A stretch of 64,000 bases of DNA from positions 8,821,612-8,885,611 of the forward strand of contig CM082594.2 of NCBI GenBank assembly GCA_040954595.2, written 5' to 3'. Both the position numbers and the translations under genes were made by a program. The notes under the pieces were generated by a model. The model saw nothing but the letters and a program-made list of their open reading frames with translations. It was not told the origin of the DNA and did not search any database. Source of the DNA: Balanoglossus misakiensis (taxonomy: Eukaryota > Animalia > Hemichordata). Below are positions 17,764 through 64,000 of this stretch, piece after piece; position 1 is the first letter of the stretch; each line of letters begins with the position of its first letter.

Positions 17764-18195
17764 TCAATCGTCTTGGTTACTAGTGCTTTCTGCTTCATTA
17801 TTAGCACTGTAATCACTATTCAACAATGAATAATCGGATTCGTCCATTTCAGAGGAGGTATTTGTCCGAGTTTCAGCCTCAGTCTCACTCTTCTTCTTGT
17901 CACCTTGGCAACCATCCACAGCGTCACTGGACAGGCTCGCTGTTTCAACTTCGGATTCTGGATCCACAAAAATGAAATCATGTGACACGGATCTGTCAAT
18001 GACCGTCTTTTCCTCTTCTTCTTCTTCATCATCACCATCATCATCACCAATGGCCGTTTCCACGGATTGATCCGGATGCTGCAATGTATTTAACTCTTCC
18101 TCTTTTCCATAATGATCATCATTGATGACAATTTCTTCATCTGCTTCTAGTAAATTTCTTGAAAATCTTAGTTCTCCTTTAAGAATATCCTTGAT
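17764..18195 (-). CDS. TBC1D5: TBC1D5 terminal coding exon (acidic tail)
   Basis: IKDILKGELRF followed by a D/E/S-rich tail and TGA. Confidence 0.9.
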   Translation of the reverse strand: MKDILKGELRFSRNLLEADEEIVINDDHYGKEEELNTLQHPDQSVETAIGDDDGDDEEEEEEKTVIDRSVSHDFIFVDPESEVETASLSSDAVDGCQGDKKKSETEAETRTNTSSEMDESDYSLLNSDYSANNEAESTSNQDD

Positions 18196-24100: not shown

Positions 24101-24354
24101 TCTCAGACTGATCAATCAAATTTTGTTCACGTCAATGCACACATTGGGTTGTCCGATCAAATGAGAAAAGAGGGGTGTTAGCATGTCTACTCACCTTCTT
24201 GAATACTTGGGGCGCCTTTACTTGGGTTCACAGTACCATCGTTGTTATTTTTATGTCCATTCTTTTGACCAAACTTGTCTAATTCACTAAGAATTGACTC
24301 TTTAGTCAGGGAACTATCAGGACCAGCTCGTGTCATCCCGTTTTTCTGAGACAT
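17764..24354 (-). CDS. TBC1D5: TBC1 domain family member 5 (Rab7 GTPase-activating protein, retromer/ATG8 partner), ~803 aa
   Basis: Coding exons in - strand order: 24354-24195, 24060-23949, 23681-23573, 23439-23278, 22978-22808, 22584-22496, 20648-20598, 20417-20163, 20031-19889, 19687-19581, 19339-19084, 18927-18743, 18612-18513, 18380-18301, 18195-17764. Total 2412 nt, all GT-AG and phase-consistent. Motifs: LRSSRFRSVCW, IAQDVRRTFPE (arginine finger), YKQGMHELLAP (glutamine finger), LEIAPQIYGIRWVRLLFGREF, GLKQIKDILKG. The start ATG is the least certain coordinate. Confidence 0.95.
18963..19030 (-). mobile_element. Degenerate SINE fragment in a TBC1D5 intron
   Basis: - strand reads GTTGCGTCCTTGAGCAAGGCAATTTA...CTTCTCCCCACCCAGGAGTAATGGCTACCTGG, resembling the central block (tgtccttgagcaaggcacttta...ctccacccagg..taaatgggtacc) I recall from invertebrate tRNA-derived SINEs. 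Confidence 0.55.
21403..21423 (-). CDS. TBC1D5: Candidate 21-nt alternative microexon of TBC1D5
   Basis: tttcgtag|TGTGATTGGTCCACAAAGGAG|gttag; symmetric phase 2, inserts VIGPQRR with no stop. Confidence 0.4.
22697..22730. repeat. (ACAT)n / (AC)n microsatellite
   Basis: cacacatacatacatacatacacatacacataca. Confidence 0.8.
22808..22978 (-). CDS. TBC1D5: TBC1D5 catalytic exon (IxxDxxR...YKQ)
   Basis: SPWNRFFQDNELRSLIAQDVRRTFPEIEFFQ...ILFCYAR..SYKQ; canonical splice sites. Confidence 0.95.
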
Positions 24355-24735
24355 GATTACTGCTTTGTGGAAACCCGAACTGATATTTATGTCAAAATCT
24401 GGATCATCTATACATCCTGGTATACAGGTAAAAATCTGAGGAAAAAAAGAAATATAAAGCTTGTAATTCAGGTCGACAATGACACACAAGTATTAGTACC
24501 AAACTACATGGCTTGTGCAAATTTCAGATAGAATGTGCCCAGGGTTCATACACTTTTACATACACATGCTACATAGTGTGATGAATTCATATTGCAATAA
24601 GGTCAGTGTAATAGTCAAGAGTCTATTCTTATTTTTTCATGATTGTTGGAATCTTAAGAAAACTGGGCCCATGCAGGTACATATACCTGGGTACCTATAG
24701 GTATGAAAAATATCAGTGGGACAAAAATAATTCAC

Positions 24736-32501: not shown

Positions 32502-32752
32502 TTATTCTCTGTCATCGCCCGAGGCGGTCACCGACTGTGATTCTTTCTTGAGCTGCCGATGTGAGTCTTCCCGTTTGCAGTAGCTGTAACGGTGGTTCAT
32601 GTGCTGGCTGTAGGACCCTGAGTGAGAGAACTTCTTGAGACATTTGTCGCACTGGTAAGGTTTTTCGCCGCTATGTAATCGCGAGTGCTCCATCAGATGG
32701 TGTTTGTGCTTGAAGGCTTTTCCACACTCCTTGCACTGATGTGGACGTTTTC
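32502..32752 (-). CDS. ZEB: ZEB terminal coding exon
   Basis: [58 protein letters not shown]. Confidence 0.96.
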
Positions 32753-35700
32753 CTGAAGAAAAAAAAACAGAAAAAAAAACATTAGAAACATTATTTTTTG
32801 TTTGATTAAGCCACAGTAGGTTGACTGTGATTATAGGCAAACAGAAAAAACATAGTGGGCGGGAACCAGGCTGGACCATCATATAGTTATTAGAACAAAG
32901 AACCACTTCTTGACATAGAGGGCTCCCTTCAACTCCATGACATGCCCAATGAATCCTAAACTGAAGATTATAAATTTTAAAGCGATGAAAAATTTCAGAT
33001 TTATAATACTGGGTCAGTAATGTATAATTACACCTGTTTAGTCTCTTCCCAAAGAAGTTTGCGTTACAAATGACAAATGCCCAGAACACATTAAATACAT
33101 TCTGCCATCTTTGTATCAACTTAGCCCACGCAATATTTGTTCGGACAGCACGGCACGTTCATCCACCATCATTTTAATGGTGAAACAGTAAAAGAAACTG
33201 CTTGTGATTAGGTAGACAGATTTTATAATAGGTCTATTCATGGATTAACCTGCTGGGAGCTGTGCAATTATTTAGTATTCAACAAGCAACTATCTCAGGG
33301 CAATTACCGAGATTTCCTCATCCCATAAGAGGTCACCTGCTGATAGATCAAGGTCCTGGGTCATTGCTGGAGGTCACAGATAGGCTAGATCATGTTACAT
33401 TTGAAGTCATTTAGCTGCCTTCAAGTTTTAAAATAGAACCACTGTTCAGCTGACACACTTTTTCGCTTTCTGAGAATTTCTCTGCGGTCATTTTGTGGGA
33501 CATGATAGGCAATCTTGCAAAATTTGAATTATTCAATAAAATCAGTTTTAGATATAAATGCCCTTAGTAACCGTCAGTGTTCATCATGGATCACTGTGGC
33601 ATCATAACAGCTCAGGAATTGTAGGTGCTATTTGGGTCACTGTATCATACACTATCCATCTAAATCCTAAAGATACAGTATTTCTTATTTTAAAATGAAT
33701 AGTGTGTCAATCACGCAAAAAGGTACATTTCACTGATGCAGAAATTATTCTTCATGACCATGTCAGCACACGAAACCAACAGCAGCCACAAATCAAGATC
33801 AATTTGCTTTACGACCCAAATCTACGCCAAATAGCCCAATCTCCTACAATGCGATGATCTAATTACACCTATGTGCATAGAAGATGTCCGCCAGGTGATA
33901 CTTAGATATTCCGGTCTGGCTTCTCCCGGAATTCAAAGTTGGCAATAAAACTGTTCACAAGTATGTGATCAAAATGCACAAGCTCAGTTCTCTTCCAACA
34001 GCAGGATTCGAGTCTGAAGTCAGAGTCTGGGATAATTACTGATGACAAGTTGGATTGATGGTGAAATTTTTTATAAAATATGGATTGTTTGATCACAAGA
34101 GACTGGCAGTCTGTGGGAGATAGGAGCTGAGACAGACAGACACACAGACAGCAAAGAGCCCTTAACTTATTGAGAATTTATTATTGACACGTTGCTCACC
34201 TGTCTATGTCCCATAACCTGCACACTTTGCTCTATGTAAATGGCATCAGTGTATCATTATTAAATAATTTCCACCCCAAAGGTAAATGACAAGTTAAACA
34301 ATTACAGTTTGACATTTACTTTTTGACGTGAGAACAGGACACTGACAAGTTGTAAAACTAATTTAATGAAGTTGACTCTTATTAAAATTTTCTCATATTT
34401 TTGGCACCACACCTTTGCAACATTTTTGTGTGTGTGCACTTGCATCTGTATGTCTCATAAAATATTCACAATTTACACCTGGTAATGATGCATCCTGTTC
34501 ACAGATGAATGCCCCACACCTGTGGACACCACTCAGTTGCGTTGCTATGGTCACCACACTTAGTGATATGAATAAATCATGGTCCGAGATCCAGTCCTGC
34601 CATTTGTCACAGAAATTCTGACTGACGATGTCTTTCTGAGCCTAATAACCAATGTTAAGCCCATACAAACATATAGAGAATTCAGAGACCAACCTCAATC
34701 GAGTTATCTCAAAAATCTAACAAAAATTTCCTGTATACAAAGATATCTCTGAGACATACCTGAGTGTTCATAGACATGTCTAAGTAGTGAGCTGTGCTTT
34801 TGGAAGGTCTTGGGACACTGGCTGCATGCGTACATTCCGTTGACTGTGCGTGGTGACCGATCTTTCCGTCTGCGGGTTCTGGAGAGACTCATTTCGCCTA
34901 TTGACTCATCCAGGCTGCCTTCGCTCACAGACTCCTCTGAGAAATGCAACAGAATTAATTTTAGCAATTTTTTTACAATGCACACAAACATGCTCAAAAT
35001 AAATAAACACATTTTTGTCTGAAAGAATCAAAGTATTTTAATTTCTTACCTCTCTGTTGAGAGCCTTGTTGATAAGGAATTCCTTGTTTTTCGAGCAAGC
35101 TCACGTCCACACCAAGTGATTTCCGTAGCTCTTCCTCTGTCATGAAGTGCCGACCGACCATCTCGGGACTACCAGTACTCATTAGACCAAGACTGTCCAT
35201 CAATTTGAGCTTCTTTGTTGGATTGTGCGCTGCAGCAGCAAGCAGGGTGGCGTCGGGATAGCCATTGTGAATCGGGTGTGCATACATGTGATGAGGGAGG
35301 TCGATCGGACCGTGGGCCAATATGGCCGCCGTGGTTGCCGGGTCAGGTTGGCCGTTGCAGTGCGCCCGGATGTTGTTCTCGAAGTACGGCTGTCCCATCC
35401 GAGGATCCACCTTGAAGGAGCCGATGTAGAAATCGGGAGCTGTGCTCGGGAGGGATCGGTACCCTTTCATATGGAAGACAGATTTGGAATTGTCAAAGTA
35501 TGGCTGCCGCCGTTCATAGGTTGGAACTTTGACGTGTTTTGGAAGCGAAAGATCCAATGGTTGATCAGTCTTAAAGTGTTTGTCTGGAGTGTGTGCTGGC
35601 ATAGGTGATGACCGTTTCTTTGTCAAGGGTATTGGCTCCTCATTACACAGTGCTTTCTTGGAGAGATTGAGTCCATTCTGATGAGCTTCTGGAGGCATCC

Positions 35701-38700
35701 CAACCATGAGTAATCCACCCCTATCTGCTCTGGCAGGAGGCAGATGTGAGTATCTCAGCGAGTTGGAAGTGGTAATCCTGAGGGGCTGTCCGCAGTCTGG
35801 TTCATCGAAACCACGACCATCGAAACTTCTTTCGTGATCATTCTTGGATGACGGTGCACCGTCATTATCGTTGAAATCAACAGATGCGTTATCGTCGTTT
35901 GAATCGTGGTTATCGACGTCGGCATGACTGTCGCTCATTTCACTTCCTGTTGGTGAGTGCTCGCCGTTTTGGCTGCTAATGCCTTGCTTGGCGCGCATGG
36001 CAATGAACCACTCTTCAACTTCGCTGATTGGCATGCTCAGTAAATGGGAGATTTTCTCTAAGCCATCCCTGGAGGGACACTGCGACATGGCAAAGAATGC
36101 CCTCAGAGCGTGTTGGTGATTCTCCGAGATCCTGGACGCCTTTTCTCTCATGTCCTCTTCCCTTTCATTGAGATTCTCATCACCGCCCTCCGAGTCATCG
36201 CCATCAGAAACCTCTATTTCTTGAATCTTGTCACACTCGTCAACCTCTTCGTCATTCTGCATAGAATTTTCACCGTTTAGATCGTCACTGTATCTGTCCC
36301 CCTCCTGGTGGACCCGGTCGTTTTCTTGCATAGCCACAACTTCGCGCTGGAAGTTGATGAATTTGGTGAGGGAGGCGTGATTCTTGACTTTCTTCACGTC
36401 TTCGTTCTGTTCGCACAGGTAGCGTTCGTGCTGGTGCAACTCTATGGGGTTATAGAACAGTTGCTGGCAGTACCGGCATGCATTCTTATCCTTCTTGAGA
36501 TGAACACTGGCAAAAGCCTCTACTGCTTTAGCTTCATTCACTTTCCTCAAAGTGTAATCCACTATACTGTAGTTTTTCCGCTTTCCGTCAACCTCGGGGC
36601 TCTGAGTGGCCGATGGGCTCTTTGAAGACAGGTGTTCTCGGGCCATTTCTGGAAGCACAATATCTACTTGTTTGACAGGTGTCTCTGGACTGGCAGTGTT
36701 AGTTTCGGAGCTCGACTGCTTGGTTTTCTTGAGCTTGGCCACATCAGTATTCTGGCCTTCTTGCTGTTGCTTAGAAACGGTAGCACCTACAATCTGGAGG
36801 ACCTTCTTCACGGCATCGTTTGGAGGCGAGGCAGCCATGGAGACGGGAGCTTTGTCAGCCGACGCGCCGTCACCATTTTCTACCTTCACGTGGATGGGCA
36901 TCATCATGTTGGACTGGTTGGGAACCATGGACGGTTTATCGAGGTGGTCGAATGAGTGCGGACCGAAGGGATGCATATACTCAGGGCCATGTGGGTTGTT
37001 GATGGCATGGCTCATTTTGTCGTTCACGACTTTCACCGGGGCTGCCTTCTCAGAGTGAAGAGGGGGGACATATTTCAGAGGTGTACACTTCTTGCTGCTG
37101 ATGTGGGAGCTGTACGAACCTGAGTGTGAGAATCGCTTCTTGCACGTCGGGCACTCGTAAGGTTTCTCCCCGCTATGAATGCGCAAATGTTCCTTCAAGT
37201 GGTGCTTGTACTTGAAGGCCTTGTGGCACTCGCTGCACTTGAACTTGCGGTTGCCCGTGGAGTGGGTCAGCATGTGGCGCTGCAGCCGGTAGATGTTCAC
37301 GAAGGCCTTGTTGCAGATCTCGCAGATCTGGTCCCGGCCGGGCATGTGCGTGGCCATGTGGCGCTCCAGCTGAGACTTGTAGGCGAAGCTGTAGTTGCAC
37401 TCGGAGCAGGCAAAGTTATTGGCGTTTTTCTCATGGCGATATTTGATGTGCTCTTTCAGAGACGTTGCTCTCTTGTAAACTCTATCACAGTATGGGCAAC
37501 TCAGAATTGTGTCTTCAAGGCCATCATCAAGTCCACCTAGAAAAAAAAATAATTTATTAAAATTTATGAAGTACATAACAATCTTTGGCAGTGCTTTATT
37601 GAAAGCTATTCTAGATAATTGCTATAACAATGGTTGTGGTTCCAGCATCTCAGCTGTGACTGGACGCCAAAACTCTCTCATTTCTGTCTGTGGTGGCAGC
37701 AAACCCACTGGCATAAATGAAGTTCCTGAAACCTTGGAGTCTTCCATACTGTGAAACATTTTATAATATTTTTCAGAAAGTGTATTTGGGATTTTGAGAT
37801 TTCAAGCAAGTTCCTCTATATTCAGCTATTTGATATGTGACTACCTGCCAATTAGAAATGCTAGCAACATCACATGGAAATTTTATCAGTTCAGGTTTTC
37901 CTGACTGCCCTGCAGAATTAAAAGCGTCGAACACCCCAGCCGGCCTCTCCTTGCACTGCTCAAGTTTCACTTGTTCACCACACCTCGGCCATAAAATAGG
38001 TGGCGGTAGGAGTTCCTTCAACTTTACGAAGATGACTAAGATTTGTCTCGTTCGATAAATCCCTCATCACAAACCGATATACCTCGGTCAGTCGATCGCC
38101 AAACCGATCACCCCCGGTCAGAAACCACACCAGTCTCCGGCACAAAGTTTATTCACTTTTCCGCGAGACAGGTCGGGCCGGACGTTTTAATCATCAGAGT
38201 GGCATTTTCAGGTGGCCCCAGCTTGTTTTGCAGTGAACTCGTTTTCTCATGACGCAGTCGGACCAACCTTGCAGGAGTTCGTGCTGTTTATACTTGGTTG
38301 AAGGGAGCGCACCAAATGATTGATACCTACGCAGGGGCAGTGGGACAGGTACCGATGCTATCTAAACAGCAGCCCTGTCTGGAGAGCCCTGGTGTGGTCA
38401 TTAACACCACACCACCCTGTCATCTTCACCATCCAATACTAACATGTGTACAATTTATCATTCTATAACTCAGAGTGAAAGTGACATGGCTAAGACAATG
38501 CAGTTTACATCAACAGCCCAGCCACCTTGGTGCCCATACTCTGTACGCCCACTACGAATTTTCACCAGTGACTCAGGTTTGAGCTTTTAGGGCCAACAAA
38601 ACTGGGATTTGGTGACATTGAAGTTTTCTGCAGGGAAACATGTTGTTTGCTCTTCTAAAAATCTCAGTTATATCTATTACATTCTTGTTGTGGCCAACAG

Positions 38701-41700
38701 TTCTCTCCAAGCGCTGAGTCAGTTTTGCAGCCTTGTTGCAACTTTTAACTTTCCAAAACAATAACCTGGAGGAGCGATTACCAACCCTCCCATCATGCAA
38801 AACCCTGGGTTCTTGCGCACACAGGTTCTGACCTCAAGCAGCTCGCAGTGCAACTGATAATTTTATTTTTATTTAATTGTGTCCCGCAGCGATGGAGAGA
38901 AATCGCTTTGAAGTTTCTTTGCCCCAATCTGCCTTTCTCACTTGACCAGGTAATTTGCCTGTAAATGAACACTGATTGAAGCGTCTCGTTTCACAGGGAA
39001 TGGCCACCTTTCCCAATACATACACCGGGAATCCCTGCAGGCATCCCCTGGTCAAATTTTAATTGCAGTTGTTTTTCCGCGGCGCCGATCTCCAAGGTAT
39101 GCCGGCCCGCGAACTGAGTCACGTCCGCCCCAAAAACCTAGGTGTAGTTTTCCACCTTTCTCCGGAGGTGGCCGACAGATTCAGTTACCTTCCAAATCTA
39201 GCACATTTCCTGTGAGAAAGCCTGGGACACACAGACACACCAGGTCGTCAAGGAATGTTTATCGGCAGGGCGACTAACCTGACAAGTCGTGTTCGTTATC
39301 CGGTTCCTCCTCTGGCGCCTCCGGATAAATTATAGCCGTGTCGCTCCGACTCAGATACTCTTGAATGTTCATCCCCCGACTCCGTCTCTCTTCCTCCCGC
39401 AGCTCCTTATTGCTCTGGTAACCATCGTCGCCGTGGAAACTCCCCTCGTTGCTGCTCACCTCATCGTGATTAAGTTCATTTTCATTGCTATGGTAGCCAT
39501 CGCTGTGGTTACCACTGTCCCTGCATTCTGGCAAGTTATTGGCTTCAACTTCTGGGTCGCTCTCATCGGGAATATCTTCAACTATATAGACAAAAAAAAA
39601 AGAGAAAAAGTGAATCTTTAGCATAGATAACCAGCATTCTTTACCATCTTCTGTCACATGACAGAAGGAAATCTAAATTTGCGGTCATTTGGAATAAACA
39701 AATACATGATTTCCTGTCTCAGTATATCAAGATACGTGAGACCATCCTCGTTTTGTGGATACAATGTGGCTGTTGTCATTTTCTTATTGCGTCAAAGTAT
39801 GCTGATATCACAACAACATCACAATTGAAAACAATTACGGGAAGTCTAGAACAGCTGTAACTTTCTTCATCTACAGACTATTTTGATCATAAGGTGCACA
39901 CTCAAAGTTTAGAAACACGGTAGATACTGGAGGTAAAGTTACTTGTTCAAAGGTCAAACGTTCAATGCAACAATCATTTTCCGCTCACGGTCAATGTTTT
40001 TTCCCACCAAAAAAATAAATTCCATAAACAAGGAAACACCACAATGTCAAGCAATGTATTAAATACAAGGTCAACAAAAATTGCACGTAAAAGTTTAAAC
40101 TGCCTTGCTCTCACGTCAATTTCCAAAATAATCAGTTTCCAGTGTGTTTTTCACCAAAACTGCAACAGGAGTTTTCAATTTTCTTGCGTGAGAACATTTT
40201 TCGGCAGATGAGCTGAGCCGGCTTCGGCGCTACACTCTGATTTTTTTTATAGTCTCCCCGCACAGGGCCTTTGGGGATTGGCTTCACTGGTATCAGCTTA
40301 CACTCTGGCTCCACCGTTCTCCGTTCGGCCTGTTTATAGAACTCACCAACAAGCAGAAACGCACATCACCTGTTAGGTTCCTTCAAACTTGTGATCATCA
40401 AACATTAAAAGGTAAATAAATTTGCCAAAATGGCCTAAACAACTGTCTGTGTATAGCCAAGCTGGCGAGCAAAAAACAGCGCCTGTTTACAGTTGCTCTA
40501 AACAAAGTCGGGTCTAGGTGTAAACTCACCCAACTACCTTCAGCCAATCGGTTTTAAAGATACTGTAAAGATTTTACAGTATACACGTTTGTGTCAATTT
40601 GCGACAAAGGTTATTTCGTTTTCATGAGCGCCAAGTTTATCCTGAAGTCACAGACTTTGAGTCGATATTTGATCTTGTGTGACATTTGGCCAACTTACGG
40701 AGATGCCAGACATCCATTGCTTGACTCTCGTTGTCTGGATTTTCGCAGTGAAAGTTTTGGTTGCGTGTGTCCGCTACAAATACTGAAATCTGCTTTTTGT
40801 CTTGACTTCACAATTACAGCAGACAACATGGTAATTGTGATCTTGCTCAAATTATTCGACCACTCTGATCTCCTCTAGGTGTGAAGCAGAGACTTTCACA
40901 AAAAATAAAGGTGTTAAAACTGGCAGTCAGTCACTGCATAAATACCTAATTTCCTGTCAGCCAATTATAAGCAATCACCCCATACTTCGATCAAATTATC
41001 TCACTCGACACAATTTCAGCTAATATTTGATCTAAACACCTCTTTCTCTCTACCTTGGAAGCAGTTTTCCCACGTGAAAAGGTGCCAAATTAGAACATCT
41101 GTGATAAAATGTTTACTACACAATGGTTACAATTTTCATCCGCTATTTAATGTTCCCAAATAACCTCTTTTTTGAGAAATATTGTAAAACAAACACTTCA
41201 CCTTTGGGTTCTTTGTAACACGTAAGCCCTGAATGAACTACAAAAAAACAGACCATCACATTTTATGTCCAAATAAAGACTAAGAAACCAATTAATGATA
41301 ATTTAAATAAATTTCCATAATAACAACACCTGAATTACAGGTAAAAGGTTAACACAATGGGAATAGCTGGATTGAGAACCACACTCTCAACAAAAGCACA
41401 ATTGTCCAAGAGTCTAGCATAGAAAAACTTGAACAAAACTACACTAGTCTCTGGTTAGCAGCTAAAATGAAGCCATTGTATTGTTTGATAAACACTAAAT
41501 TGTTTTAATTAGGACCTAATACACTGAATTGGGCAGGGACAACACAGGTCTGGTAATTTGCATAGTTATTTCCCTCTCTTCCCCGAAAATTACCCTTCGT
41601 TATCAATAAAAGCCAAGCGGAAAACCCCTGATCAATCTACACACAGCACCTTTACAAAGATAACTTCTGTTCGAAATACACCTTAATTCCGGTCAATTAA

Positions 41701-44700: not shown

Positions 44701-47386
44701 CTCTGCTGAGAAGGTGTTGGTTTTCACATGCGTCATCTACACTATAGCTGTTTTTCTTGCAAAGCGCTTGAATCAAGGCTGAGGGGAAAAATTCCCGGCA
44801 TATCTGCCACGATAGCATCTGAATTATGCCAGTGGTATGCCAAGCATCAGCTGTCCATAGGTAAAAGGTACTAACCGATATTAAAACAAGGAACCTGGCA
44901 GGGGGCTTTCAAACAAAAAAGAAACTGTTAATAAACCTGTCAACATGGGGGCAAGGTTTCACACATGATTTTTTTCTGCTGAAGTGGAAAAAAAAACTTT
45001 CAAACATAATTTGATCAAGGGATTTACCCCTTTCCCCAAGCACCATGTTTAATAATTAGTACATATACACCCACAAAAGTTAAAACAAACAAGTTTTTTT
45101 AGGATCAGCCAACTCAGAAGTTTTCTGGGCTTGCCTACTCAACTATCTGTGCAGTTTACATTTTATTTAAAATATCAGAAAGAGTTAATCAGAGATAATG
45201 TGTACATGCCAATATAGACTTTGTAATCATTTAGCACATAAACCAGAGCCCAAGGTAAACATACAGACAATAGAAACTGTTAGCACAAAGTCCTGAATTT
45301 GCTGCCAGTATTTTTTGAATTGTTGGGGGATAGTGGCAGCACCTAGGAGGGGATGTTTATGGTTTATCTCTGGTTAGATACTTGCAGGAGATTATAAACT
45401 GAAGATCCCTGCGGCAGGCCCCAGCAAACGCCACTTTCAGGTAGTCTACTGACGTACTTTATTTTTACTGTTCCGCTAGGTATAATGTTACGTGGCTTGA
45501 GAACAAGCGCTCTGAAAACACCAATTTAATGGCCGTGAAAAGATCTGGGATAAAAATAAATCGTGTGATAGTCTGCAAGGCTCCAGTATGCGATACTTTA
45601 CATTACAGCTTGTGGATCTGGAGTCAAAACAGAAACACTGTGAACTATCAGGTATATAGAGAGCTCACCTCTTCACACTACAATCTGGAGTAGATGAAGA
45701 CCAAATATTGAAGAAAAGTGAGCGATAAACACATAAAAAAATGTCTATCAGGTGATGCAATTAAGTAAATCCAGTGTGTTAAATTACCAACTGTATTATT
45801 TACATATAACACCTGCTGGGCTTATTAAACAATACTTCTGGCATCTGGAAGGCCGATGGCCATTCCTTCAATCATCACTGCTCCCAACAATTGTGTCAAG
45901 TTTGGGACTAGAAATAACCATTTCATTATCCAATTCGTTGCGAAATTGGACAAGTTGGGAAATTGGAATCTAGGGGTAAAGTCTGGAATTGTTTGGGTAT
46001 TAGTTGAGATCAACTGAAGGGTTTTATTGGAAGACGGGCTTACAAGGAAGGGGAGTACATTTCAGAAACTGGACTGCATGTTAGAGCAATATGTGCGAGC
46101 TCATAGGCGCTCTATCTATTCAGAACACTACTTAGCATATACCTTCTTCCATTGTGGAAAAGAACAAAAATAGAGTGTTTTACATATCACTTTCCCTTTC
46201 ATCCCTCCCCCACCATCAGTTATCAGACATAAAAAAATAAGGAAGGATTAAAAAGTTTGTGGTGTCTTGAGAATTTCCAATATTTTTACTTTTTTGGAGA
46301 CAGGAATTTAAAACACTCTCTCCGCGGTAAATATAACATAAAGGGCATTGGAGAAAAGGTGATTACACGTAACACACACACATGAGGGGCCGAGACCATC
46401 TGTCCGGTCCGAGCTCTGGATTGACAAAAGAAGGCAAGGTACAATCACTCCAAAAGCGTTGGACCAAACGAAAACAAACATCCACGCAGAGTCCGCGGGA
46501 CGTCGATTGAGTTGTCGCCTATCTCATCAAGCCAGGTATGCGGTATACGAGGTTAAAATCAACTGAAACCACGTCCGCCAGTGACTCGCTTGTGATCAGA
46601 ATGGGACCAGCTTGCCCGCAGGTTTTACGCGAGACCATCATCGCGAATGTCCCTCTACTTTTGTCTGATCGCCGGAGTATAACGGAGCAAAGGATGCTCC
46701 AAGCCCCACACAAAGTGAGGTACACGATTTCAGTCGGTGTACAATACACGCACACCGCGTCTCACACGGCGAAATATCACACGTTTAAAATTCAGAGAAT
46801 CGAAAAAACTGCAAACACGGAATGCAAAATAAAACAGTAGAAACAGCTTGTCGGATTACATGGCCACGTTTTCCCTTTGTTAACACCTGCAGTATATTAA
46901 TTATGCAGTCGACTTTCGCTGTCATTGTTCGCTGGTCTGTATCATTGTTGGGCCATCACACTTTTCGAAACAGTTGGTCGAAAAAAAATCACCGATCGCG
47001 TACACGAATTTTGAACTTTTATACGTCCATACAGTTGATCATCGAGTGTAATTATTCCATCGCTTGGATTTTATCCACTGATGCCACTGACAATCAAGGA
47101 GCAAATAGTCGCGATAGACACAAAGATCCATTCATATAATAAGCTTGTATACACACTACGTTACACTGCACTCAGGTATATCGTTGAAATCAACAGCGAA
47201 CAATGTAACGCGCACATCTTAATGTCGTGGAAATCGACACAAAAACTCGCCGCATTGTCACGAAAGTTACAAGTTCAGTCAAAGTCATGATGGTTGACAA
47301 TTCTGGACAGTTGAAAAATTATTCCTACCTTTTTTACGTCTTGGGTTAGCTTGTTTTCTCCGTGTACACCTGGGGCCCTCCGCCAT
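32502..47386 (-). CDS. ZEB: Zinc finger E-box-binding homeobox protein (ZEB1/2, zfh1 orthologue), ~1091 aa
   Basis: Exons 47386-47329, 39581-39279, 37536-35050, 34936-34760, 32752-32502; 3276 nt, all junctions phase 1. Motifs: [36 protein letters not shown]-terminal ZF cluster ending [52 protein letters not shown], atypical homeodomain, QPLDLSLPK, three C-terminal fingers ending [20 protein letters not shown]. Confidence 0.97.
34760..34936 (-). CDS. ZEB: ZEB coding exon 4 (first C-terminal finger)
   Basis: [27 protein letters not shown]. Confidence 0.95.
35050..37536 (-). CDS. ZEB: ZEB coding exon 3 (N-terminal ZF cluster, Smad-binding-like region, homeodomain, CtBP motif)
   Basis: Lies within ORF 34994-37576; tttttctag acceptor, G|gtaaga donor. 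Confidence 0.96.
38070..38121. repeat. Short imperfect direct repeat, two units spaced ~30 bp
   Basis: caaaccgatatacctcggtcag ... caaaccgatcacccccggtcag. Confidence 0.55.
39279..39581 (-). CDS. ZEB: ZEB coding exon 2 (acidic region, [10 protein letters not shown] motif)
   Basis: tatag acceptor, G|gttagt donor; conserved ZEB motif. Confidence 0.92.
47329..47386 (-). CDS. ZEB: ZEB first coding exon (58 nt, NuRD-interacting motif)
   Basis: ATGGCGGAGGGCCCCAGGTGTACACGGAGAAAACAAGCTAACCCAAGACGTAAAAAAG|gtagg = [19 protein letters not shown]; absent from the ORF track. Confidence 0.93.
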
Positions 47387-47955
47387 GTTCCGATTCATTG
47401 AGTTGATTGAGAGAAGCTCGCGCATGCGTATGGATATACCAAATATCTACGTCATTGATGGGACTTCCTAATTTACAAGAAATCCTACTTTTATTGTGAC
47501 ACTGCCATGATAGGTGGAAACACTTCGCACCATCTGGAAACGATTTACCTTGCAGCGGTGACATTGCGGGCCATAGTTTCTCAACAAGGTTTAGATTTGA
47601 TATATTTTATACAAGGTCAGCGCTGTCCCGCTTTGCTCATCGCTACAATGATTGAATGATGTCTATTTTTATGCAAATACACGCCAGGTGTGCGTACGTC
47701 CTTTGTTTGTATTCATGCGATCCCTCTTGAATTTGCATCACTTTATCACTAGGCAACAGTCCTTAGCCTTTCGACCTTATAAATATGTAATCCAAGACAA
47801 AATATGCCCGATCCCCGCGGTTTCTTACATGAAAGGCCGGTGAAAATCAAAATAACATGCGGACTTATTTCGCTGTGCTGACACCTGGTTAGCGGCGGAG
47901 GAATCAATTGTGGGTTCATTGGACGCTGAAGCTGGTACGGGAAGCCTGAGAAGCC
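47387..47955. promoter_or_regulatory. Bidirectional promoter shared by ZEB (-) and the CCHC zinc-finger gene (+)
   Basis: 569 bp between divergent ATGs; outward TATA-like boxes (TATAAAA on - at 47605-47611, TATAAATA on + at 47778-47785); opposed octamers at 47671 and 47731; E2-boxes at 47685 and 47882; CpG-enriched over ~46.4-48.3 kb. Confidence 0.7.
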
Positions 47956-47995
47956 ATGTCTCGCCGAAAACAAGCCGCCCCACGGCCGATCAAGC
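47956..47995 (+). CDS. 40-nt first coding exon encoding MSRRKQAAPRPIK
   Basis: gccATG Kozak-like context, perfect gtaagt donor, FOG/SALL/BCL11/ZNF423-type motif. Confidence 0.85.
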
Positions 47996-50900
47996 GTAAG
48001 TTTTTCACCCACACATGGACGATCGGTATCGTGATATTTCTCGGTATGTCGAGATCGTGTGTCGTACCGCGTTGTGACCTTCGATTTGCCGCACGGTGGC
48101 GAAACGCGAAATGTTTAGGTTCTTGGCAGATTGTTACTGATTGGCTGCCATTTTGAATATGAAATGAGCCACCAGGTTTGGCAACGGTGCTGCATACGTA
48201 ATGAGTTTTCAGATAAACTTTGCACTGTGAACAAAGGGAATTTCAGTGGGCGCTCACGCAGAACTTAGGCGGGAAATAGAAAGGTTTGAATCCGGGCTGA
48301 ATCAGGGAAACTTAAAAAAGACTAGTATACCATTAGCCCAGACATTTTTACTGGAAAAAAATGCTTTCCAATTTATTTAAAAATAAGATAGATCGGAAGT
48401 ATTATTAAGTATCATCTTAATATGAATCCATTGAAAATTAGCACACAACAAATATATCATTCTTTTTTATGCTCTTGATAAATCTGAGGCTTTGTTCAAT
48501 GAAACTTTTTAGGATGGAAAATCAGAAAACTATAACTGATGACTGATGGGATTTTTAAGAAAACTAAATTATTTATTATAAGATGAAAAATCAGTACACC
48601 AACTATAAATTATGTCTTGTTTTATGATGTGTTGAATTTTAGGTGGATAATGTGTTTTAATTGAAACATTTTTACCAATGACATATTTTGTTCAAAGATA
48701 ACTTGTGACATATGTCATTTTTCTCAAAATAATATGCAAATGTCTGAAGAGGCTTCAGCATAATATAATAATATATTTCAAATCATACGAATATATATAT
48801 TCTGCCGTTGCAAAATTTTAAGGCTCACTTTTGCACTTTGGGAAATCCGTCCAGCAGCGCATTTCTAGAAACACCTCTCACCACCCAAGTTCCTGTGTCC
48901 TGGATTTGCTATTTTCCAGGATTTCCTCCTTGTAGGGAGATACACTTTCACCTTTATTGCAGCCGGATTGACAGATGCTGTGACTCCAGGAAATGACATT
49001 GTCAACGGTTTCTGAGAAGGAATCGGAATTTCCTTGCAGAAGTCGCCACACGGCATACCTTATATGGAATATTAATATCCATCCCCACTGAATATTCATG
49101 ATCCGGCTTCCCAGTCTGTGGGATGGGAAAGCCATCTGTGCTTGTTGTCAGCTCTCCGGGGGTTCCCGCGGTGATTTCCCCTCTCCTCCACGTGTTTCAA
49201 CTTATCACCTACCCCATCAAACTTTTCACCCAGCTTGTCAGTATCATGGTACGCCCCTATTGTTTTGCATTGCTGGGTCAGTCCGCTTGACATCAACAAA
49301 GGTGGGACTGTAGTGAAATATAAGTTTCTACGGTAACCTGCCAGATTCAGTAATTTTTTTCTCTCAGAGATTTACTGGGAACATATTCTCTTAAATTACA
49401 TTCGCAAACCACGTCTTGACTTCACAGCTATTCTCAAGTTTCTTTGCTCTTCATAAAAAAATCTCTTGTGAAAGTTGATTCAGGATTTAACCTCTTCACC
49501 ACCACGTCCGAGTATACGAGTCCAACCACACCATTAAAACAATTGCCAAGGATCAAAGTACAGTTTTTCACAGGGTGAATGACTTTCTCATCTATGTTTA
49601 TAAAAAACATTTGGTAACAACAGAAACTGGTGAAAATATTGCATTGTGCCTTTTTGTGTTGACAGATTTTAAACGCCCTGGCGAAGTTGTACTTGGGTAA
49701 CCTTTCCTGATTGTGGTTCCCTTTTATAAAATGATTGGGTAATATGCTTGAAATCTCTCCCTCTACTGACCAATCAAATTTCAGCTGATATGTCAAGTAT
49801 GTCTGCATTTTATGTAATCACAAAATAATATGATGGTAACTAAAAAATTCCGAAACCTTTGTGGTAATTCACACAGCTCAATCGAAGCAGTCATTTTATA
49901 GGACACTGTCCACTTTGGTGGTATTAATTGCGACTAGCCCCAGTTGTAATTATTGCGTGCATCATGTTGGTCATATCAATATCACTGGGTGACCTGCAGT
50001 AATTTATAATGGTTTTGAGTTGTGTGTTTATCGATGACAAATCACGGGACAGGGTGACCGAGATAACAATAAATACAGTGGCTCTAACTTTAAGTTGCTA
50101 GATGGCTGCATCTTTTGCAAAAGGGTAGACAACCTAAATGAGGTGAAAGGTCATATTTTGACGTTGCTAAATTATGTTGAATTCACTGACAATGTGCAAA
50201 AGTACAGAAGAGTAGAGCCTGTCTTTTCACTTATTTGGTTCTTTGACTCCAAACCTTCAAAATGGAGGTTGCTTTTTGATCAAACCCAATTTCTTCACCA
50301 AATTATGCCCTCTGTGGTCAAAATTTGGTAGGCACGTGGCATCGCTCACCTTTGCATCATACATGTACCTATGCAGCAGCTGGTTCCGAGACGGTTCCAT
50401 GCAAGCAAGACTACATTTGTACTGTTCAAAGTGTTTCCATTCATGTAGTTTTGTTTATGTACTATAAAGCCTCAATATTTTAGCTTGATAATAATGTGTG
50501 TTATTGGGTTCAACCTGTATGGTTTCTTCGGAATTTTTAAGACAAATAAAGCCAGAACTGTCTGCCAGTTTGACCATAAAAGCCATGGATCCACGTGCAC
50601 GTGAAATAGCTAGCTGCTCTTTGATGCCAGACACACAAAAACTCTCCAATCCAATGGCATGCTTTCAAGGAACAGACTACCTGTTTACAAGTCAGCTCAA
50701 AGCAGCTGGAAGAATAGCCAGGTAAAAGGGCTGCACGCCACAGAAGCCAGCGTGAATAACAACTCCCAAAGAATGTCTTCTCTCATTTGTTATGCACCGG
50801 ATGTTACATGTCCTGGGCTAAAGTACCTCTATTGAGTCTGGGGATCTGCTTTGCCAATTGTTGGGGGCAAGCTGTAGAGGTTAGAGTAGATTGGTTAGTA

Positions 50901-53900
50901 TTCTCTCCTTGATAGGGGTGGCCCGTATCCCAGCACCTTCATTCTCAGCTCCCACTATCATGATTTACATGCCCCACTTTTTAGGTTATTTGTAGAAGTG
51001 TCCCCCTACTAGTGTAAACAAAGACTCAATCAACCCATCCAAACTTCAGGAGACTTGTTCAGGTCTTGTTATTTTATGTCAAGTGGATGCTGTTGTTTAT
51101 CCCAGACTCCAAACATGAAGTAGAGGATATCAAAATGTTAAAGGTGGAGTCATCCATTCACTTTGTCATAACATTGCAAACAGTAAAAAAAACCCACGTC
51201 AAACCACCTTTTTGTATTTAATGCACTGGTATAGACCTGTTAAAAATATGACTATTCTAATGTAGCATCAATAACTCATATAATGCAAATGACCTTTCTT
51301 GAATCTTAATCTGATTAATTTCCACAGAAATTTTTATTCATAAATTGAGAAATAAGTACTTCCTTTCAGAGTCAATCCAAGGAGAATGTTTTTTCCACGT
51401 CCCCAGTCGGATGATAGATGATATGGTCGTGTTACACCCAACTTCAATTTGTCAAGTACTTGTAGATGCAGATGTATTACACTGTAGACCAGTCGAGAAA
51501 AAAGTCAACAAATCAAAGATAACTGCACTATACGAACGTCATGATAAGGGGGGGGGGATGACAATTCATGGAAGAGTGACTTCTTTCAGTGTCTCAGAAA
51601 GTCCAGTCAAAAGATGGAAGAGCAGAAGAAAGGGAAAGTCCATAATTGAATTGTGTACTAGTGGTGGTTTATCACGTTTTAATACAGCTGTTTAATCTAG
51701 TTGAGTTATTGTGTCTAGACACGATGGCTCCCACATGAACATATACACACACCCCCTGGTAAAGGTAACCCCCTCCAATGGTCACTACCCCCCCCCCCCC
51801 CTGAGGCCCTTAATCTACTCAACCAATGCCAGTGATGTATAAAATGCTGCTACGCTGAATTAAACATTTGTAACCACTTTAATTGAGACATGAGCATCTT
51901 TTATTCTCAATTCAGCTGAGTTATAGTCATTACAGATTTTGCGTTTGTAAATGCAAGACAAAAATAAGATATCAACTTTGGAAACAACTTTCTTGGTCTT
52001 CCATCTTCAGATACAGAAACAAATGTGGTTTTCAAAATTTACCCATTTTGGCTCAACGATTGTATACATTTTCATGGCCAAAGTCTGCACCGTGATTGGT
52101 GCTGATATTTTTGGTAGTCCCATGGCTAGCACTTTGCCGCCAGAAGATAGGGCAGGTGCTTTGCGTGGTGTGTGCACATTCCCCCATTAAGATTGGAGCA
52201 AGTCTCGCCCGGTATCCTAGTAACGGCAGGGATTTGTGATATGACATAAGCTCACGGTGTGTGGCACAACGCCGGTTTTAGACTCAAAAGTTGAGATATC
52301 TTGAAGCAAACTGACAGTTACCTCTGAAGTAGGGGGCATCTGGTTGCATTTATCCTCAAGTACCAAAATAATTTAATCAGTGGTTAATCTCCGTAATATG
52401 AAGTTGGGTACCAGGGGAATATAACATTTTAAGTGGCTTTTTTGACTTTCTCAACGGGTACACGCAAACGCAATGAAACCAAGAAATGAGTTCGGTGCAT
52501 ACGGTGTCCTGTATCATGTTTTAAGTCACAGGTGCTCATAAAAACATAATAATACTTTTAAAATGCCAGCTTTTGTAAATTGATATATCAGAAATTTATG
52601 CAAATCTGACAGGTTGACCTTGCTGGCCCATACCATGTTAAAGCCAATGGTGTCCATGCCCTTTGACCTGAATTAAACCAATTCATAATTGATTTCATAG
52701 TTAACAACATCAACCTGTCATGTACGCACTTGTTGCCATGGCAATACTGAGCAATTCTTCAGTATCTGCAATTCTTGGCCATTCTGTTCGTTGCAAGTAA
52801 TTCAATTAATATTTTAGAAGAAAAATATAGTCTGCAAAATGTTATGGTAGTGTATTCTTGACAAAATGTGGAAAGCATTTTAACTAACCTTTAGTAAGTT
52901 CATTTGAGATCAGTGTAAACCAACAAGATGGGAAATTTTGGAGAAGTAATATCGAAGACAAAATTGAGAGACTCCATGACAGCTGCATAAAGGTGTGCCA
53001 TCTTTAAAAGAAACCACAACTGAAACAACAAATGTTGTTTTGAAACAATTTGCCTATGCTGCTGTTTTTAGTTTATCCCGGTGTTTATTCGTTATCCTTC
53101 CTATAAGACAATAAAAACCACCTTAATGTACACTGGGGTGACCTCAGCAGGGGAAGCGGGGAGAAACCTTGCCTAAAAGTACGCCCAACAGCTGCTTTAT
53201 GAGTTACAGATGTGAAAGTTATATCACTTTGAGAGGGAAATGTTCCCGCCTAAAAGTTGGGCCGTAAATTCTGACTCTGCATGAAATTTCCATATATCAT
53301 ACACAAATTCACTACAAAGGTTTCAATTTTGGTCCAAAATTGCGGCATAATCCATGTTTTATAAACTGTAATCCAACCAGAGTGATTAAAGGGAATTTTT
53401 TTGTGATGTTCAGAAATTTCTGTGAAAGGATATTAAAACTTTTAAGATTGTTAAAGACATGTCAACAATACGTGAAGTATAATGGTGATGTGAAAGTTGC
53501 AGAAATTTAATGCGAAAATTTATGATCTGTATGAAAGTTGAGACCCCTGAAGAAACAGGAGCTGACGAGACAAGCAGTCAATAAACAGAAAGAGTCGTAC
53601 TCAGGTTTGAGGTAACTATCACCGTGTAAAGCTTCAAGTCATGGTGCCTCTCTGTATGGGAAAACTCCAGTAAAATAATAAACAAGGCTTTGATTTCACA
53701 CCGAAGTGACCTATTCTGCCAAAAGTGGACAAGGCGACTTTTATTACCTCCAATGTGGGAAAGACATTAACTTGCTCCTGGCCAATCAGACGGCGGCGTT
53801 TCAGTCGCACACTCAGGTTGGCTGCGCCCCTGTCTTAATTTACAAGGGACCAGAGTGTTCAAATTTATTGCAGAGGTCGTTAAAAAGTTTTAAATGGTCT

Positions 53901-59900: not shown

Positions 59901-62900
59901 AGCTAAATAATGACACAGATAAAACAAATCACGGCTATTAGAATATATGTACATCAATGAGAGAATGAGACTAAGGCACTGAAACCGACCAAGTAACATT
60001 ACACCATTTGTTTCTTCCAAAAGTTCCTCCTGTATGTTTGTGTCAAATAGTTTAGGTTGTTAACTTTTAGCAGAACATATGACTTTCCTGTGTGGAATCA
60101 AAAACACAGGGTGCTAATTGGGTTGATGCGAGGGTCTGCTCTTATAGGTTGCACCTGTCGTACACCTGTTTGAAAAGTGGGTTGAGAAAATAAACACCAA
60201 TCAAAATCATTTCCGAGACAGCTTCAAATAAGCTCTTGAATCTCAGCTGACCAATCATTTGTGATGAACTTTTTTTCCAGAGGTCCACAGTGAACTATTT
60301 GAAAACTTCTACTCAGAAGAGGGAGAGAACAGCGACTTCAAGATCAAAGAAGAACCGTTTTCTGAGAGTGATGAATGCCCTGATGAGGAGGAGGAGGAGG
60401 AGGAGGAGGATTATGATGAAGACTATGATGATGAAGAAGATGGAAATTGGGTAAGTTCAAAGTTCAGAGTTCAAAGTTTGGCAATCTTTACATGGCCACT
60501 TTCTGACCCACAGTGCTTCTTAACTTTGTACTCATGAAATATAAAATGGTTTCCCCCGAACAGTTGAAGTGCAGAAAAGAAAGAACACAGACATAGAAAT
60601 ATTGACATAGAAAGCAGACTATTGGCACAGGAGAATTTTATCAGCACTAGCTCAGCATTTTAAGTAGTTTCAGTTCCAGATCCAGACCTATACAGTCATG
60701 AAGTAATCACTTTCACTATCCAGGTTGATCAGGTGACTGAATATCACTCTGACTGCAGAAAAACTGAAAGTAACTTGGTTGAATTCAGGGAGGAAATACT
60801 CTTATCAGTTCTGCTTTCCAGTTGTTTCTATTACAATAACACAGACATGTAACGTGTTGAATGTTTGTTTGTTATGACAGGTCATCGCTGAGGATGAAGG
60901 AAGTGACGAGGAATTTGATGGAGATGGAAAAGATGACGAATCCATGGATACGGCCAATGAAGAGGATGATCAGAAGATTACCATAGAAACTGGAGATAAT
61001 GTTGATGAAGAAGCTGGGTAAGATGCAATTTCTGGTGTTTAGTAGATGTACATGTATTTACTGTTCTGCTTTCAGATGATATTTACCACTGCTGGATTTG
61101 CTATTTTACATGATTCTACCAGCCATTTTGTTTACAAGTGGAAATGGTGAAATACAGAATGAAATATTAGCAACAGGCAGTTAAATTTAAACCAAATGTT
61201 TAATACCCAGCAAGAACAGGTGTTGTGAAGAATTGGAACCATATGTTCAGAGATCTGAATATTATTATACCATTGATAACATTACCCTACATATATATAC
61301 CGGTATTTGGGGGGGGGGGGGGAGTTACCCTTAGTTACCCAATCTTTGGTATATCCTATTGTTTACAATGATGTGGTTAGAACTACCGGTATACACCAAA
61401 CAGTGGGGTGAATTATTGCATAATTAAAACAAAGTACTTGGCCTAATTCTGTATCGGTAGACTAGGGAGTCAGATTCGAGGATATCAGTTTGCATCTTGG
61501 GTAAAAGTCACCTACTTCTGCCAGTGACAATCTAGTGAACACACCCATCATTGTGATAGAACATCTTGGGGGGTTTTGGTCATCGATGAGGGGGGTGGGG
61601 GTACTCGTTGCCTGTTTAACAGGTCAGATTATCATATCTGCACATGCATTAATTTTGTTCAGGGAAAATTCAATTGAAGTATACCCACAACCTCTTCCCA
61701 CAGAGTTGTAAATTCGTCTGTCACCCAACTGTTCAGCCAGTGACAACAAACCATGGGATGCTCAGAATAGCCATTTGGCCGCTGCATATATTTACATAAG
61801 TTTCATACATTAACATAAATTAGCATAATGTGGCATCACCTTGCTTGGCTGGAGTTGCCTTTGTTCTGGTTAGGTGCTGACTGTTTTACAATAAGACAAA
61901 TTTTAGCATGAAAATGGACCCACAGCAGATGTGCCTGGTGGTGTTAATCTCCAACTTGACACATGGTTCATTTTAAATAAATAAAATCAGGGACTCACTT
62001 TCCCATCAAAGGCAAATTAAAAGTGTAAAATGATTGCTTCAATCAGAACTGTTAATGACTACATGCTGGAAGAACACTTTTGCCTGGCAGGGCTGTGTGT
62101 CTTGCTGAGTTGTGTGGATTTATGCTGCAAACATTTTATATCAGTTCCTTAATTTAGAGCATTTAATGTCATTGACCTGCCCATTAATTTGACCATGAAT
62201 TATTTTTTAATCAAAAGGTTTGTTTTGCTTTCCCCAGTGCAAGTGACCTCCCAGGCAGACCTGAAATTCTCATTTACTTAAATACTTTGCTTTCCATGAT
62301 TTCAAGTTTTGTTGGATGATAAGGAAAATAGCTACCGTCTACTGGGCAGAATAAAATTTATGAAAACTCAGTCGTAATGAGGTTGATAAAATGTTGGGTT
62401 GACCGTCTGAATGGGAATGGCCAAGCATTGTGATATCCCATGAGACCACCACTTTTTGCCTCTTGGTGGCGCTGGTCACGAAACAGCCAAGTTGTTAAAT
62501 CTAAGAGGGCGACATTCACAATCTACACTTTATAATAGCTTGTATTGTTTCAATTATTTCAAAATCAAACCTAAACTTGGAATTTATACTCACAGTGTTT
62601 AACCACAGAATGATGTTATAGAATTCATCATAAGTCAATAATCACATGCAGCAAAAAGGGAAAACCTTCTAAATGACCACTGTTTCTAAACTCGTAGTCT
62701 TTCTTCTCTCCTCATTTTCCCAGTGACAATAAAGATAAAGACGATGATGATGCATCTGGTGAAGGTGGCAGTTCACAATATGGATGGAGTTACACATACA
62801 GTAAGTCATAAAATTATTTATAAAAAAATGAACTAGTACAATAGTTATCAACATTATTTGACAAGTGAGTACATGTACATGTAATATGTTTTACATTCAT

Positions 62901-64000
62901 TTACACATGCATGTGTTTTTCTATGTTTTATTTCAGAAGATGGACGTCCTATGTGTAGATATTGTGGCAGATCTTTCATGAGTATTGGAGGTTTGAAGAT
63001 CCACTCACATCGTTGCAGAGAAGAGAAAGCCAAGAGAGTCAAAGAACAAAAGGCGTCAAATCCTGAAGTTCAGTGCTGGAAGTGCAAAGCCATATTTTCT
63101 ACAAGAAGTTCCATGAAACGACACGAGAAGAAGTGCGGAAAGTTATACTTCCGATCTCGGCCGATGCGCGACATGGGGACCACCCGCTGCAATTACTGCA
63201 AGAAAGAGTTCCTGACTCGTTCTCTGATGAAACACCTGTCCCGGTGCAAATGGCTGACCAATTCGCAGCTGCAGATGCAGTATCGTCGGGTGATTCTCCC
63301 GAAAGGTTCAGACCCCGGGAGGGCGGAAATCGCACCCGCCAACCCGTCGCCGACCAGCACGACTGCACCCAGTGCAGCCACTTCAGTCGCTCCGGCACCC
63401 ATCAAGATCGCCCCGGCTCAACCAGCAACCTCCCCTGCGGCGGCCAGTAGCGTGCAGAGTCCACCTGCCCAGCAGCCAATAGCAGCAGCCATTCCCCAGT
63501 TACCACCTGCTGTGGTGATGACTGCAGCCCCGGGTTCACAGCCACCGCAGTTGCAGTACATCATGCCGGTCATGAGCACTGGGATGTCATCGCCGGGGAA
63601 TTCGACAGCGCCCATATTCATGGTCGCTAACGTCGGTGCAAACGTCCCACCAGGTTCTGTAATAGCTGGCAACGTAGTACCAGCAAGTTCCAGTGTTACA
63701 AACATCTTGCCCAGCGGCATACCAGCCTCTGGGGTGACCACCTTAGTTCCTGTCAGTATGGTTTCAACCACCATGGCAAACGTGCCCCCGAATGTAGCAG
63801 TCACCCGTGCCCTCTCCAGTGGTGCTGTTGTCATGCCTACCACCCCTGCCACCAACATTGCAGCGACCAGTGTTACAAACGTCCTGCCGGCAAACGGAAC
63901 TGCAACTCCCACACCGGCTGCCAGCGCAAGTACAGTTGCAGTTCAAGCTGCCAACGTAACTGGAGCTGCAGCAAACGCGAAGTCACCTACAGGGCCTGCT
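47956..64000 (+). CDS. Uncharacterised zinc-finger protein: N-terminal MSRRKQ NuRD motif, acidic region, three CCHC fingers, P/A/T/V-rich region; 3' truncated
   Basis: Exons 47956-47995 (MSRRKQAAPRPIK, C|gtaagt), 60281-60450, 60881-61017 and 62937->64000 (open to window end). Exons 1-3 join in phase; the 61017-62937 junction needs a small unresolved exon. Linking exon 1 to exon 2 across 12.3 kb is inferred from phase only. Confidence 0.75.
60281..60450 (+). CDS. Acidic exon of the zinc-finger gene (IKEE SUMO consensus, poly-E from a (GAG)n run)
   Basis: ttttttccag acceptor, TGG|gtaagt donor; VHSELFENFYSEEGENSDFKIKEEPFSESDECPDEEEE... Confidence 0.82.
60881..61017 (+). CDS. Second acidic exon of the zinc-finger gene
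   Basis: gacag acceptor, GG|gtaaga donor; VIAEDEGSDEEFDGDGKDDESMD... Confidence 0.8.
62937..64000 (+). CDS. Large exon with three CCHC zinc fingers and a low-complexity region (runs off window)
   Basis: tttcag acceptor; CRYCGRSFMSIGGLKIHSHRC, CWKCKAIFSTRSSMKRHEKKC, CNYCKKEFLTRSLMKHLSRC, then YRRVILPK, PIKIAPA and A/P/T/V-rich sequence; missing from the ORF track because there is no stop in the window. Confidence 0.88.

Follow-up and report, generated by a model that had tools for sequence, protein, structure and literature searches.

ZEB proteins contact two separated CACCT(G) half-sites, and the R22G substitution in ZEB2 abolishes binding of the nucleosome remodeling and deacetylase (NuRD) complex (PMC8304685). 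Two classes of NuRD-interaction motif (NIM) have been described: an N-terminal RRKQxxP motif, as in FOG-1 (ki, 1,200 nM), and an internal RK(x)xxPx[KR] motif, as in ZNF512B (ki, 19 nM), the class in which ZEB2 is listed (PMC11602157). In the mouse, Zfp438 is the sole other coding gene beside Zeb1 in an 814-kb interval, and exon 1 of Zeb1 has 58 coding nucleotides, as read from the variant name c.58+181 (PMC3183090). The human gene ZNF438 has been little studied and lies at a risk locus for autoimmunity that it shares with ZEB1 (PMC13205159, PMC13649568). Here, we analyzed a 64,000-nucleotide stretch of the genome of the acorn worm Balanoglossus misakiensis (GCA_040954595.2, contig CM082594.2, positions 8,821,612 to 8,885,611; hereafter the window, to which all positions refer), in which a ZEB gene on the minus strand and a second zinc-finger gene on the plus strand, referred to as the partner, begin head-to-head. 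The explanation that on balance best accounts for the whole locus is that ZEB and a likely ZNF438 lie head-to-head around what is probably one compact two-way promoter, each encoding a predicted RBBP4-binding motif.

The first coding exon of ZEB lies at 47329..47386 on the minus strand and that of the partner at 47956..47995 on the plus strand. Read from the sequence, the ZEB exon (47386 to 47329) consists of 19 codons plus one base and carries an internal-type NIM, and the partner exon (47956 to 47995) consists of MSRRKQAAPRPIK plus one base and carries an N-terminal, FOG-1-type motif; the lengths of 58 and 40 nucleotides are those of the coding parts, to which 5′ untranslated regions (UTRs) and start sites are additional. 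An earlier note on this stretch had described a head-to-head zinc-finger pair with NuRD-type motif exons, and these proved to be two spliced, conserved genes; the coordinates of both exons, their phase 1, and their GT donors were confirmed. The long first introns of 7.7 and 12.3 kb that it had placed ahead of acidic exons measured 7,747 bp in ZEB and 12,285 bp in the partner, and the Asp plus Glu content of the second exons was 30 and 51%, respectively, so that both are acidic. The distance from the ATG of ZEB (minus) to that of the partner (plus) is 569 bp. In the six frames of the window, RRKQxxP occurred twice, in these two first exons, against an expectation of 0.025 per window from 40 third-order Markov simulations. 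In both genes the first intron falls 11 codons past the start of RRKQ, as in human ZEB2 and not as in BCL11B. The 58-nucleotide phase-1 exon itself is the ordinary ZEB layout: it is present in mouse (c.58) and in two vertebrate-like loci (L001 and L002) that were found among metagenome contigs with a degenerate ZEB-exon pattern. No second RRKQ exon was present within the 1,077 and 358 bp upstream of these two loci, which may be of the ZEB2 type and make a weak control.

The ZEB model has an open frame of 1,091 amino acids in five exons with canonical GT-AG sites. On the minus strand, the first exon is followed by the acidic exon 2 (39279..39581), exon 3 with the N-terminal finger cluster, the homeodomain-like domain, and PLDLS (35050..37536), exon 4 (34760..34936), and exon 5 with the C-terminal fingers and the stop codon (32502..32752). 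As predicted from these features, namely two finger clusters, a homeodomain-like domain, PLDLS, and the NIM, the minus-strand gene is a full ZEB. Two further in-frame ATGs lie upstream of its start, at 47398 and 47425 (minus), and could add 4 or 13 amino acids; the Ptychodera model extends by 19 amino acids. The partner model is open for 496 amino acids within the window, also in five exons with canonical GT-AG sites, and continues past the window end. Its exons on the plus strand are, after the first, the acidic exons 2 (60281..60450) and 3 (60881..61017), exon 4 (62724..62800), and exon 5 (62937..64000, cut by the window end), which encodes three C2HC-type fingers and then a Pro/Ala/Thr-rich stretch.

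The junction from 47995 to 60281, which the earlier note had named as a check, was seen in run X8 of a relative (organism A); the data were contigs, and this one spliced run was taken as RNA because introns were skipped, its RNA status being a guess. One 6,118-nucleotide X8 contig spanned 47329-47995, was spliced with GT..AG borders from 47995 to partner exon 2, and reached exons 3-5. Its loose ends, compared by eye with the starts of the second exons, agreed in 22 of 30 letters for ZEB and 24 of 30 for the partner. Contigs show neither start sites nor strand; we do not take the two-gene contig as one transcript, and its cover of the gap may reflect overlapping 5′ ends or traces of DNA, as X8 also holds intron pieces. 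Contigs of runs X1 and X2 covered both first exons unspliced, indicating that the layout is kept in organism A. Substitutions in organism A numbered 113 in the 1,191 bp of 47098-48288, and 25 of 126 and 71 of 392 positions in two partner coding pieces; intron DNA was mostly unalignable at 85%. Within 47640-48030 (391 bp) there were 33 substitutions, none of which fell in the 110 bp of 47640..47749 (P = 6e-5 at the mean rate, for a block that was picked afterwards and whose left end coincides with that of the stretch compared). Both of the two differences in partner exon 1 were synonymous. Judged by these substitution patterns, the motif exon of the partner and the gap are under purifying selection.

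The gap between the two start codons (47387..47955) putatively holds the shared promoter and the 5′ UTRs. The ratio of observed to expected CpG was 1.18 over 47200-48200. Two octamers (47671 and 47731) and a CAGGTG (47685) lie in the invariant block, and a second E2-box, CACCTG, which is inverted relative to the first and unchanged in organism A, lies at 47882..47887 on the plus strand. When 11 motifs were tried, octamers were in excess in the gap (P = 0.008), and the corresponding value for E-boxes was P = 0.08. POU/OCT and bHLH sites have been reported in the human ZEB2 promoter (PMC4505893). Taken together, the sequence features of the gap suggest that one compact promoter probably serves ZEB and the partner and would link their expression. 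Just upstream of the ZEB start, at 47420-47428, there is also a palindrome, GCGCATGCG, which we take to be NRF1-like. Run X4 covered just 4 of the 30 bins, with its greatest depth at the gap, as would be expected of an open-chromatin library; its library type is not on record and it was not used.

The ZEB protein of the window showed 85, 75, and 59% identity with the ZEBs of Ptychodera, Glandiceps, and Saccoglossus, respectively, and its exon 1 peptide was identical in three acorn-worm ZEB records. The partner orthologues of the same genera (P0128, P0129, and P0125, respectively) all begin with MSRRKQAAPR[P/S]IKQ. The earlier note had proposed a search for an MSRRKQ exon within 1 kb of ZEB in relatives; among the acorn worms, partner orthologue and ZEB lie on contigs of equal size in Ptychodera (40,130,686 bp), Glandiceps (24,148,329 bp), and Saccoglossus (1,116,440 bp), where the linkage was read from P0121 and P0124, the split models of the newer annotation. 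In Ptychodera, the partner accession XP_070535424 comes directly after those of ZEB, XP_070535422/3. No partner orthologue from echinoderms or amphioxus was present among the matches listed for the N-terminal fingers (8 read and 10 named of 63) and the C-terminal region (3 matches), the middle cluster not having been searched. According to the orthologues, the full partner is approximately 2,000-2,200 amino acids long. The motif is followed by an acidic stretch, three C2HC fingers, and a low-complexity linker; next come a cluster of four fingers, two fingers standing singly, a Cys-rich region, and, at the C-terminus, a cluster of three fingers. The 3′ part was read from the proteins of the relatives, as the window ends in exon 5. 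No homeodomain match was found in P0125, P0128, or P0129, nor a conserved PxDLS (the PLDLS CtBP motif) among the partner sequences, and by this predicted domain content the partner is not a ZEB family member. A PDB search returned generic finger proteins. In Saccoglossus, a QRICH1/DUF3504 (Crypton-derived) domain separates the motif exon from the acidic stretch (P0125 residues ~15-440; P0124). It is absent from the Ptychodera and Glandiceps models, was not found in the window, and is split off as a separate gene in the newer annotation; it is likely a lineage-specific insertion. The C-terminus of the 500-amino-acid Ptychodera model P0128 resembles another frame of 63631-63999 in exon 5, likely owing to a frameshift in the assembly or the model.

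With respect to the identity of the partner, an Atlas query with residues 555-1275 of P0121 placed ZNF438 clusters at ranks 1, 2, 6, and 9 among the 10 rows listed of 30 matches. The neighborhood is also consistent with ZNF438. On mouse chromosome 18, Zfp438 lies on the minus strand at 5.213 Mb and Zeb1 on the plus strand at 5.759 Mb, and chicken, finch, and opossum have the same divergent ZNF438/ZEB1 layout, the finger exons of the two genes being separated by 242, 271, and 729 kb, respectively (PMC3971581 supplement). ZNF438 is thus head-to-head with ZEB1 in four of the five tetrapods listed there, the frog rows being on differently named scaffolds. Outside the mouse, the ZNF438 rows stand for Ensembl genes without a name that were assigned through their cluster in the table, as do the ZEB rows of finch and opossum. 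The accessible parts of the supplements of PMC11618098, PMC4729200, and PMC6040777 contained no match to ZEB or ZNF438. Atlas ranks and neighborhood together indicate that the partner is very probably the acorn-worm orthologue of vertebrate ZNF438.

The two motifs were assigned to the published NIM classes. A basic residue at position 8, which marks the internal class, was present in ZEB and in none of the four partner sequences, and all four partner sequences had MxRRKQxxP at the N-terminus. Ten of the first 13 residues of the partner are the same as in FOG-1(1-15) (peptide from 10.1101/303537), and the motif was present in 84 of the 120 ZEB homologues listed. The ZEB motif is thus of the internal class and that of the partner of the N-terminal class, both matching published NIMs. 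The two proteins would accordingly be expected to use a common pocket of RBBP4, with tighter binding predicted for ZEB from the published classes, and we have high confidence in the prediction that both motifs bind RBBP4 of NuRD.

The fingers of the partner were compared with those of ZEB. Helix scores against ZEB were 41-45 and 35-39 for the two partner clusters, with a background mean of 2.3 and maximum of 35 (124 triples); for the last two fingers only, they were 42 and 30-31 against a background maximum of 22. In BLAST rankings of three of the four partner finger pairs, 14-19 ZEB pairs came before any of 129 background pairs, and for the fourth a background pair ranked second. The fingerprints of tetrapod ZNF438 are FHHD-HGST (RGSA in mouse) and those of ZEB are YHHE and HHHE-HGSQ; in the PMC3971581 tables searched, all occurrences of FHHD (5/5), YHHE (12/12), and HHHE (22/22) fall within the ZNF438 and ZEB groups. 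These likenesses incline us slightly toward the view that the partner arose from ZEB by an inverted duplication before the deuterostome split and may have retained the motif exon along with two clusters of ZEB-like fingers. The possibility that the exon was duplicated recently was rejected, as the DNA likeness between the two exons is only patchy.

If this explanation is correct, the shared promoter would drive two repressors that read related DNA. With no conserved PLDLS, the partner would repress through NuRD only and would read E-box-like DNA, and it could share or compete for ZEB targets; through the pair of inverted CACCTG boxes that the gap contains, ZEB might feed back on both genes and damp them. 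Several results weigh against parts of it. The excess of E-boxes in the gap is weak and concerns one of the 11 motifs tried, the spliced evidence comes from contigs of a single run with guessed RNA status and intron pieces, and the head-to-head orientation and distance were read only in the window and organism A. An alternative is passive linkage, in which the partner is a bystander with enhancers of ZEB in its introns, the start sites are separate, and the proteins have no functional coupling. It would agree with the conserved non-coding blocks in the partner first intron, with the 242-729 kb between the finger exons of tetrapod ZEB1 and ZNF438, and with a human enhancer allele that contacts both promoters and was reported to raise ZEB1, not ZNF438 (PMC13649568). 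Nevertheless, a gap of 569 bp leaves little space for independent promoters, one spliced contig crosses it, and the motif exon is under purifying selection, so that passive linkage is rather unlikely.

The identity and origin of the partner are subject to further opposing points. The Atlas score of 0.96 was equalled to two decimals by unrelated finger proteins (REST-like and ZFAT) and is uncalibrated for protein parts, the range 555-1275 was picked because a likeness to ZNF438 was suspected, no ZNF438 row was among the 10 listed for the shorter query of P0121 residues 810-945, and the likely ZNF438 identity is drawn from Atlas features and neighborhood. The partner could instead be an acorn-worm-specific finger gene unrelated to ZNF438, the tetrapod neighborhood being coincidental: full-length-type relatives were found by the N- and C-terminal searches only in acorn worms, and the partner has approximately 2,000 amino acids versus 749-893 for the ZNF438 clusters. 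However, ZNF438 clusters lead the Atlas list for the middle region, the orientation beside ZEB1 is the same, the finger fingerprints are alike, and the acorn-worm-only result came without a sequence search of the middle cluster; this alternative is improbable. As for descent from ZEB, the partner carries C2HC fingers toward its N-terminus and gave no homeodomain match, HGSS alone occurs 103 times, a whole-triple ZEB profile gave the partner 54-61 bits and the background up to 76, and the background was a small set of 65 proteins, most of them unnamed, that is not typical of metazoans. ZFPM, ZNF423/521, and TSHZ genes also have 40-nucleotide phase-1 motif exons. The mirrored RRKQxxPR architecture claimed in the earlier note held in that each exon finishes in phase 1 at 11 codons from the RRKQ start; it did not hold for the motifs, which differ in class (internal in ZEB, N-terminal in the partner), or for the acidic exons, which do not align (E = 1.2-9.9). 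The inverted duplication that it had offered as one possibility agrees with the ZEB-like finger helices of the partner; the finger-pair tree, which is unfinished, did not join the partner with ZEB and, like the whole-triple profile, did not discriminate. These differences, together with a partner start nearer to that of FOG-1 and a Zfp131 fingerprint (LYHE-HGHE) resembling the LYHE-HGTG of the partner, would suit a ZNF438 that shares the promoter but is no paralogue of ZEB, its motif exon having been gained separately or shuffled in as a FOG-type module, and its finger likeness being convergent. We consider this somewhat doubtful: both partner clusters are ZEB-like by helix score, the fingerprints of tetrapod ZNF438 are closer still, and convergence would need two coincidences beside ZEB.

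Other features were noted in and around the introns. Several non-coding blocks of 50-140 bp in partner intron 1 (50678-53772 and 57449-58991) can be aligned to organism A, unlike the DNA around them, and are candidate enhancers; conserved non-coding blocks are also present at the start of ZEB intron 1 (46351-47000). Mouse Zeb1 is raised by a point change 181 bp into its first intron (PMC3183090). Exons of a Rab-GAP TBC-domain gene lie downstream of ZEB on the minus strand (17767-24500), and a multi-exon gene whose last open frame of 420 amino acids has no Pfam match lies on the plus strand (8265-13416).

In the literature on ZNF438, ZEB1, hemichordate ZEB, MSRRKQ/NuRD, and ZEB1-AS1, covered mostly through listings and with subscription papers largely outside, we found neither this arrangement nor a kinship of ZNF438 with ZEB described. 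The locus combines known parts in a real, conserved head-to-head pair, the likely new element being the link between ZNF438 and ZEB. Should ZNF438 be an ancient duplicate of ZEB, this would give it a predicted class of DNA target and a history, date its linkage to ZEB to the deuterostome ancestor, and provide the antisense RNA of ZEB1 with a testable origin; the acorn-worm locus places the whole regulatory question within 569 bp. In its broadest and distinctly tentative form, the proposal would be that ZNF438 is the sister of ZEB by inverted duplication before the deuterostome split, and that the ancestral two-way promoter persists in acorn worms, where it serves two repressors that recruit NuRD, read E-boxes, and are subject to ZEB feedback; in bony vertebrates the two genes would have come to lie hundreds of kb apart, ZNF438 would have lost its NuRD exon, and ZEB1-AS1/Zeb1os might be a relic of the old ZNF438 start.

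The pair can be compared with four known systems. Like the bidirectional-promoter pairs as defined in PMC2670823, the two genes are on opposite strands of a CpG-rich gap of <1 kb, here measured from ATG to ATG and not between start sites; they differ from such pairs in that both are predicted recruiters of one co-repressor and may be ancient paralogues. Compared with ZEB1 and ZEB2 of the Zfh1 family, the minus-strand gene is alike in its two clusters, homeodomain-like domain, PLDLS, and 58-nucleotide phase-1 motif exon, whereas the partner lacks a homeodomain and a conserved PLDLS; the divergent neighbor is protein-coding here, in contrast to a non-coding antisense RNA such as Zeb1os at mouse Zeb1 (PMC3183090). 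The partner shares MSRRKQxxP at its very start with the N-terminal NIM proteins (FOG-1, SALL1/4, BCL11, ZNF423, and ZNF827), but its finger set differs, it is paired with a gene for an internal-type motif, and a NIM was not reported for a ZNF438-like protein in the literature searched. Vertebrate ZNF438/Zfp438 resembles the partner in its head-to-head position with ZEB1 and its xxH[DE]-HGxx finger pair. The finger exons of tetrapod ZNF438 are 242-729 kb from those of ZEB1, whereas in the acorn worm the ATGs are 569 bp and the finger exons 25 kb apart, and the acorn-worm protein of approximately 2,000 amino acids adds the N-terminal NuRD motif, the acidic exons, three C2HC fingers, and a second finger cluster.

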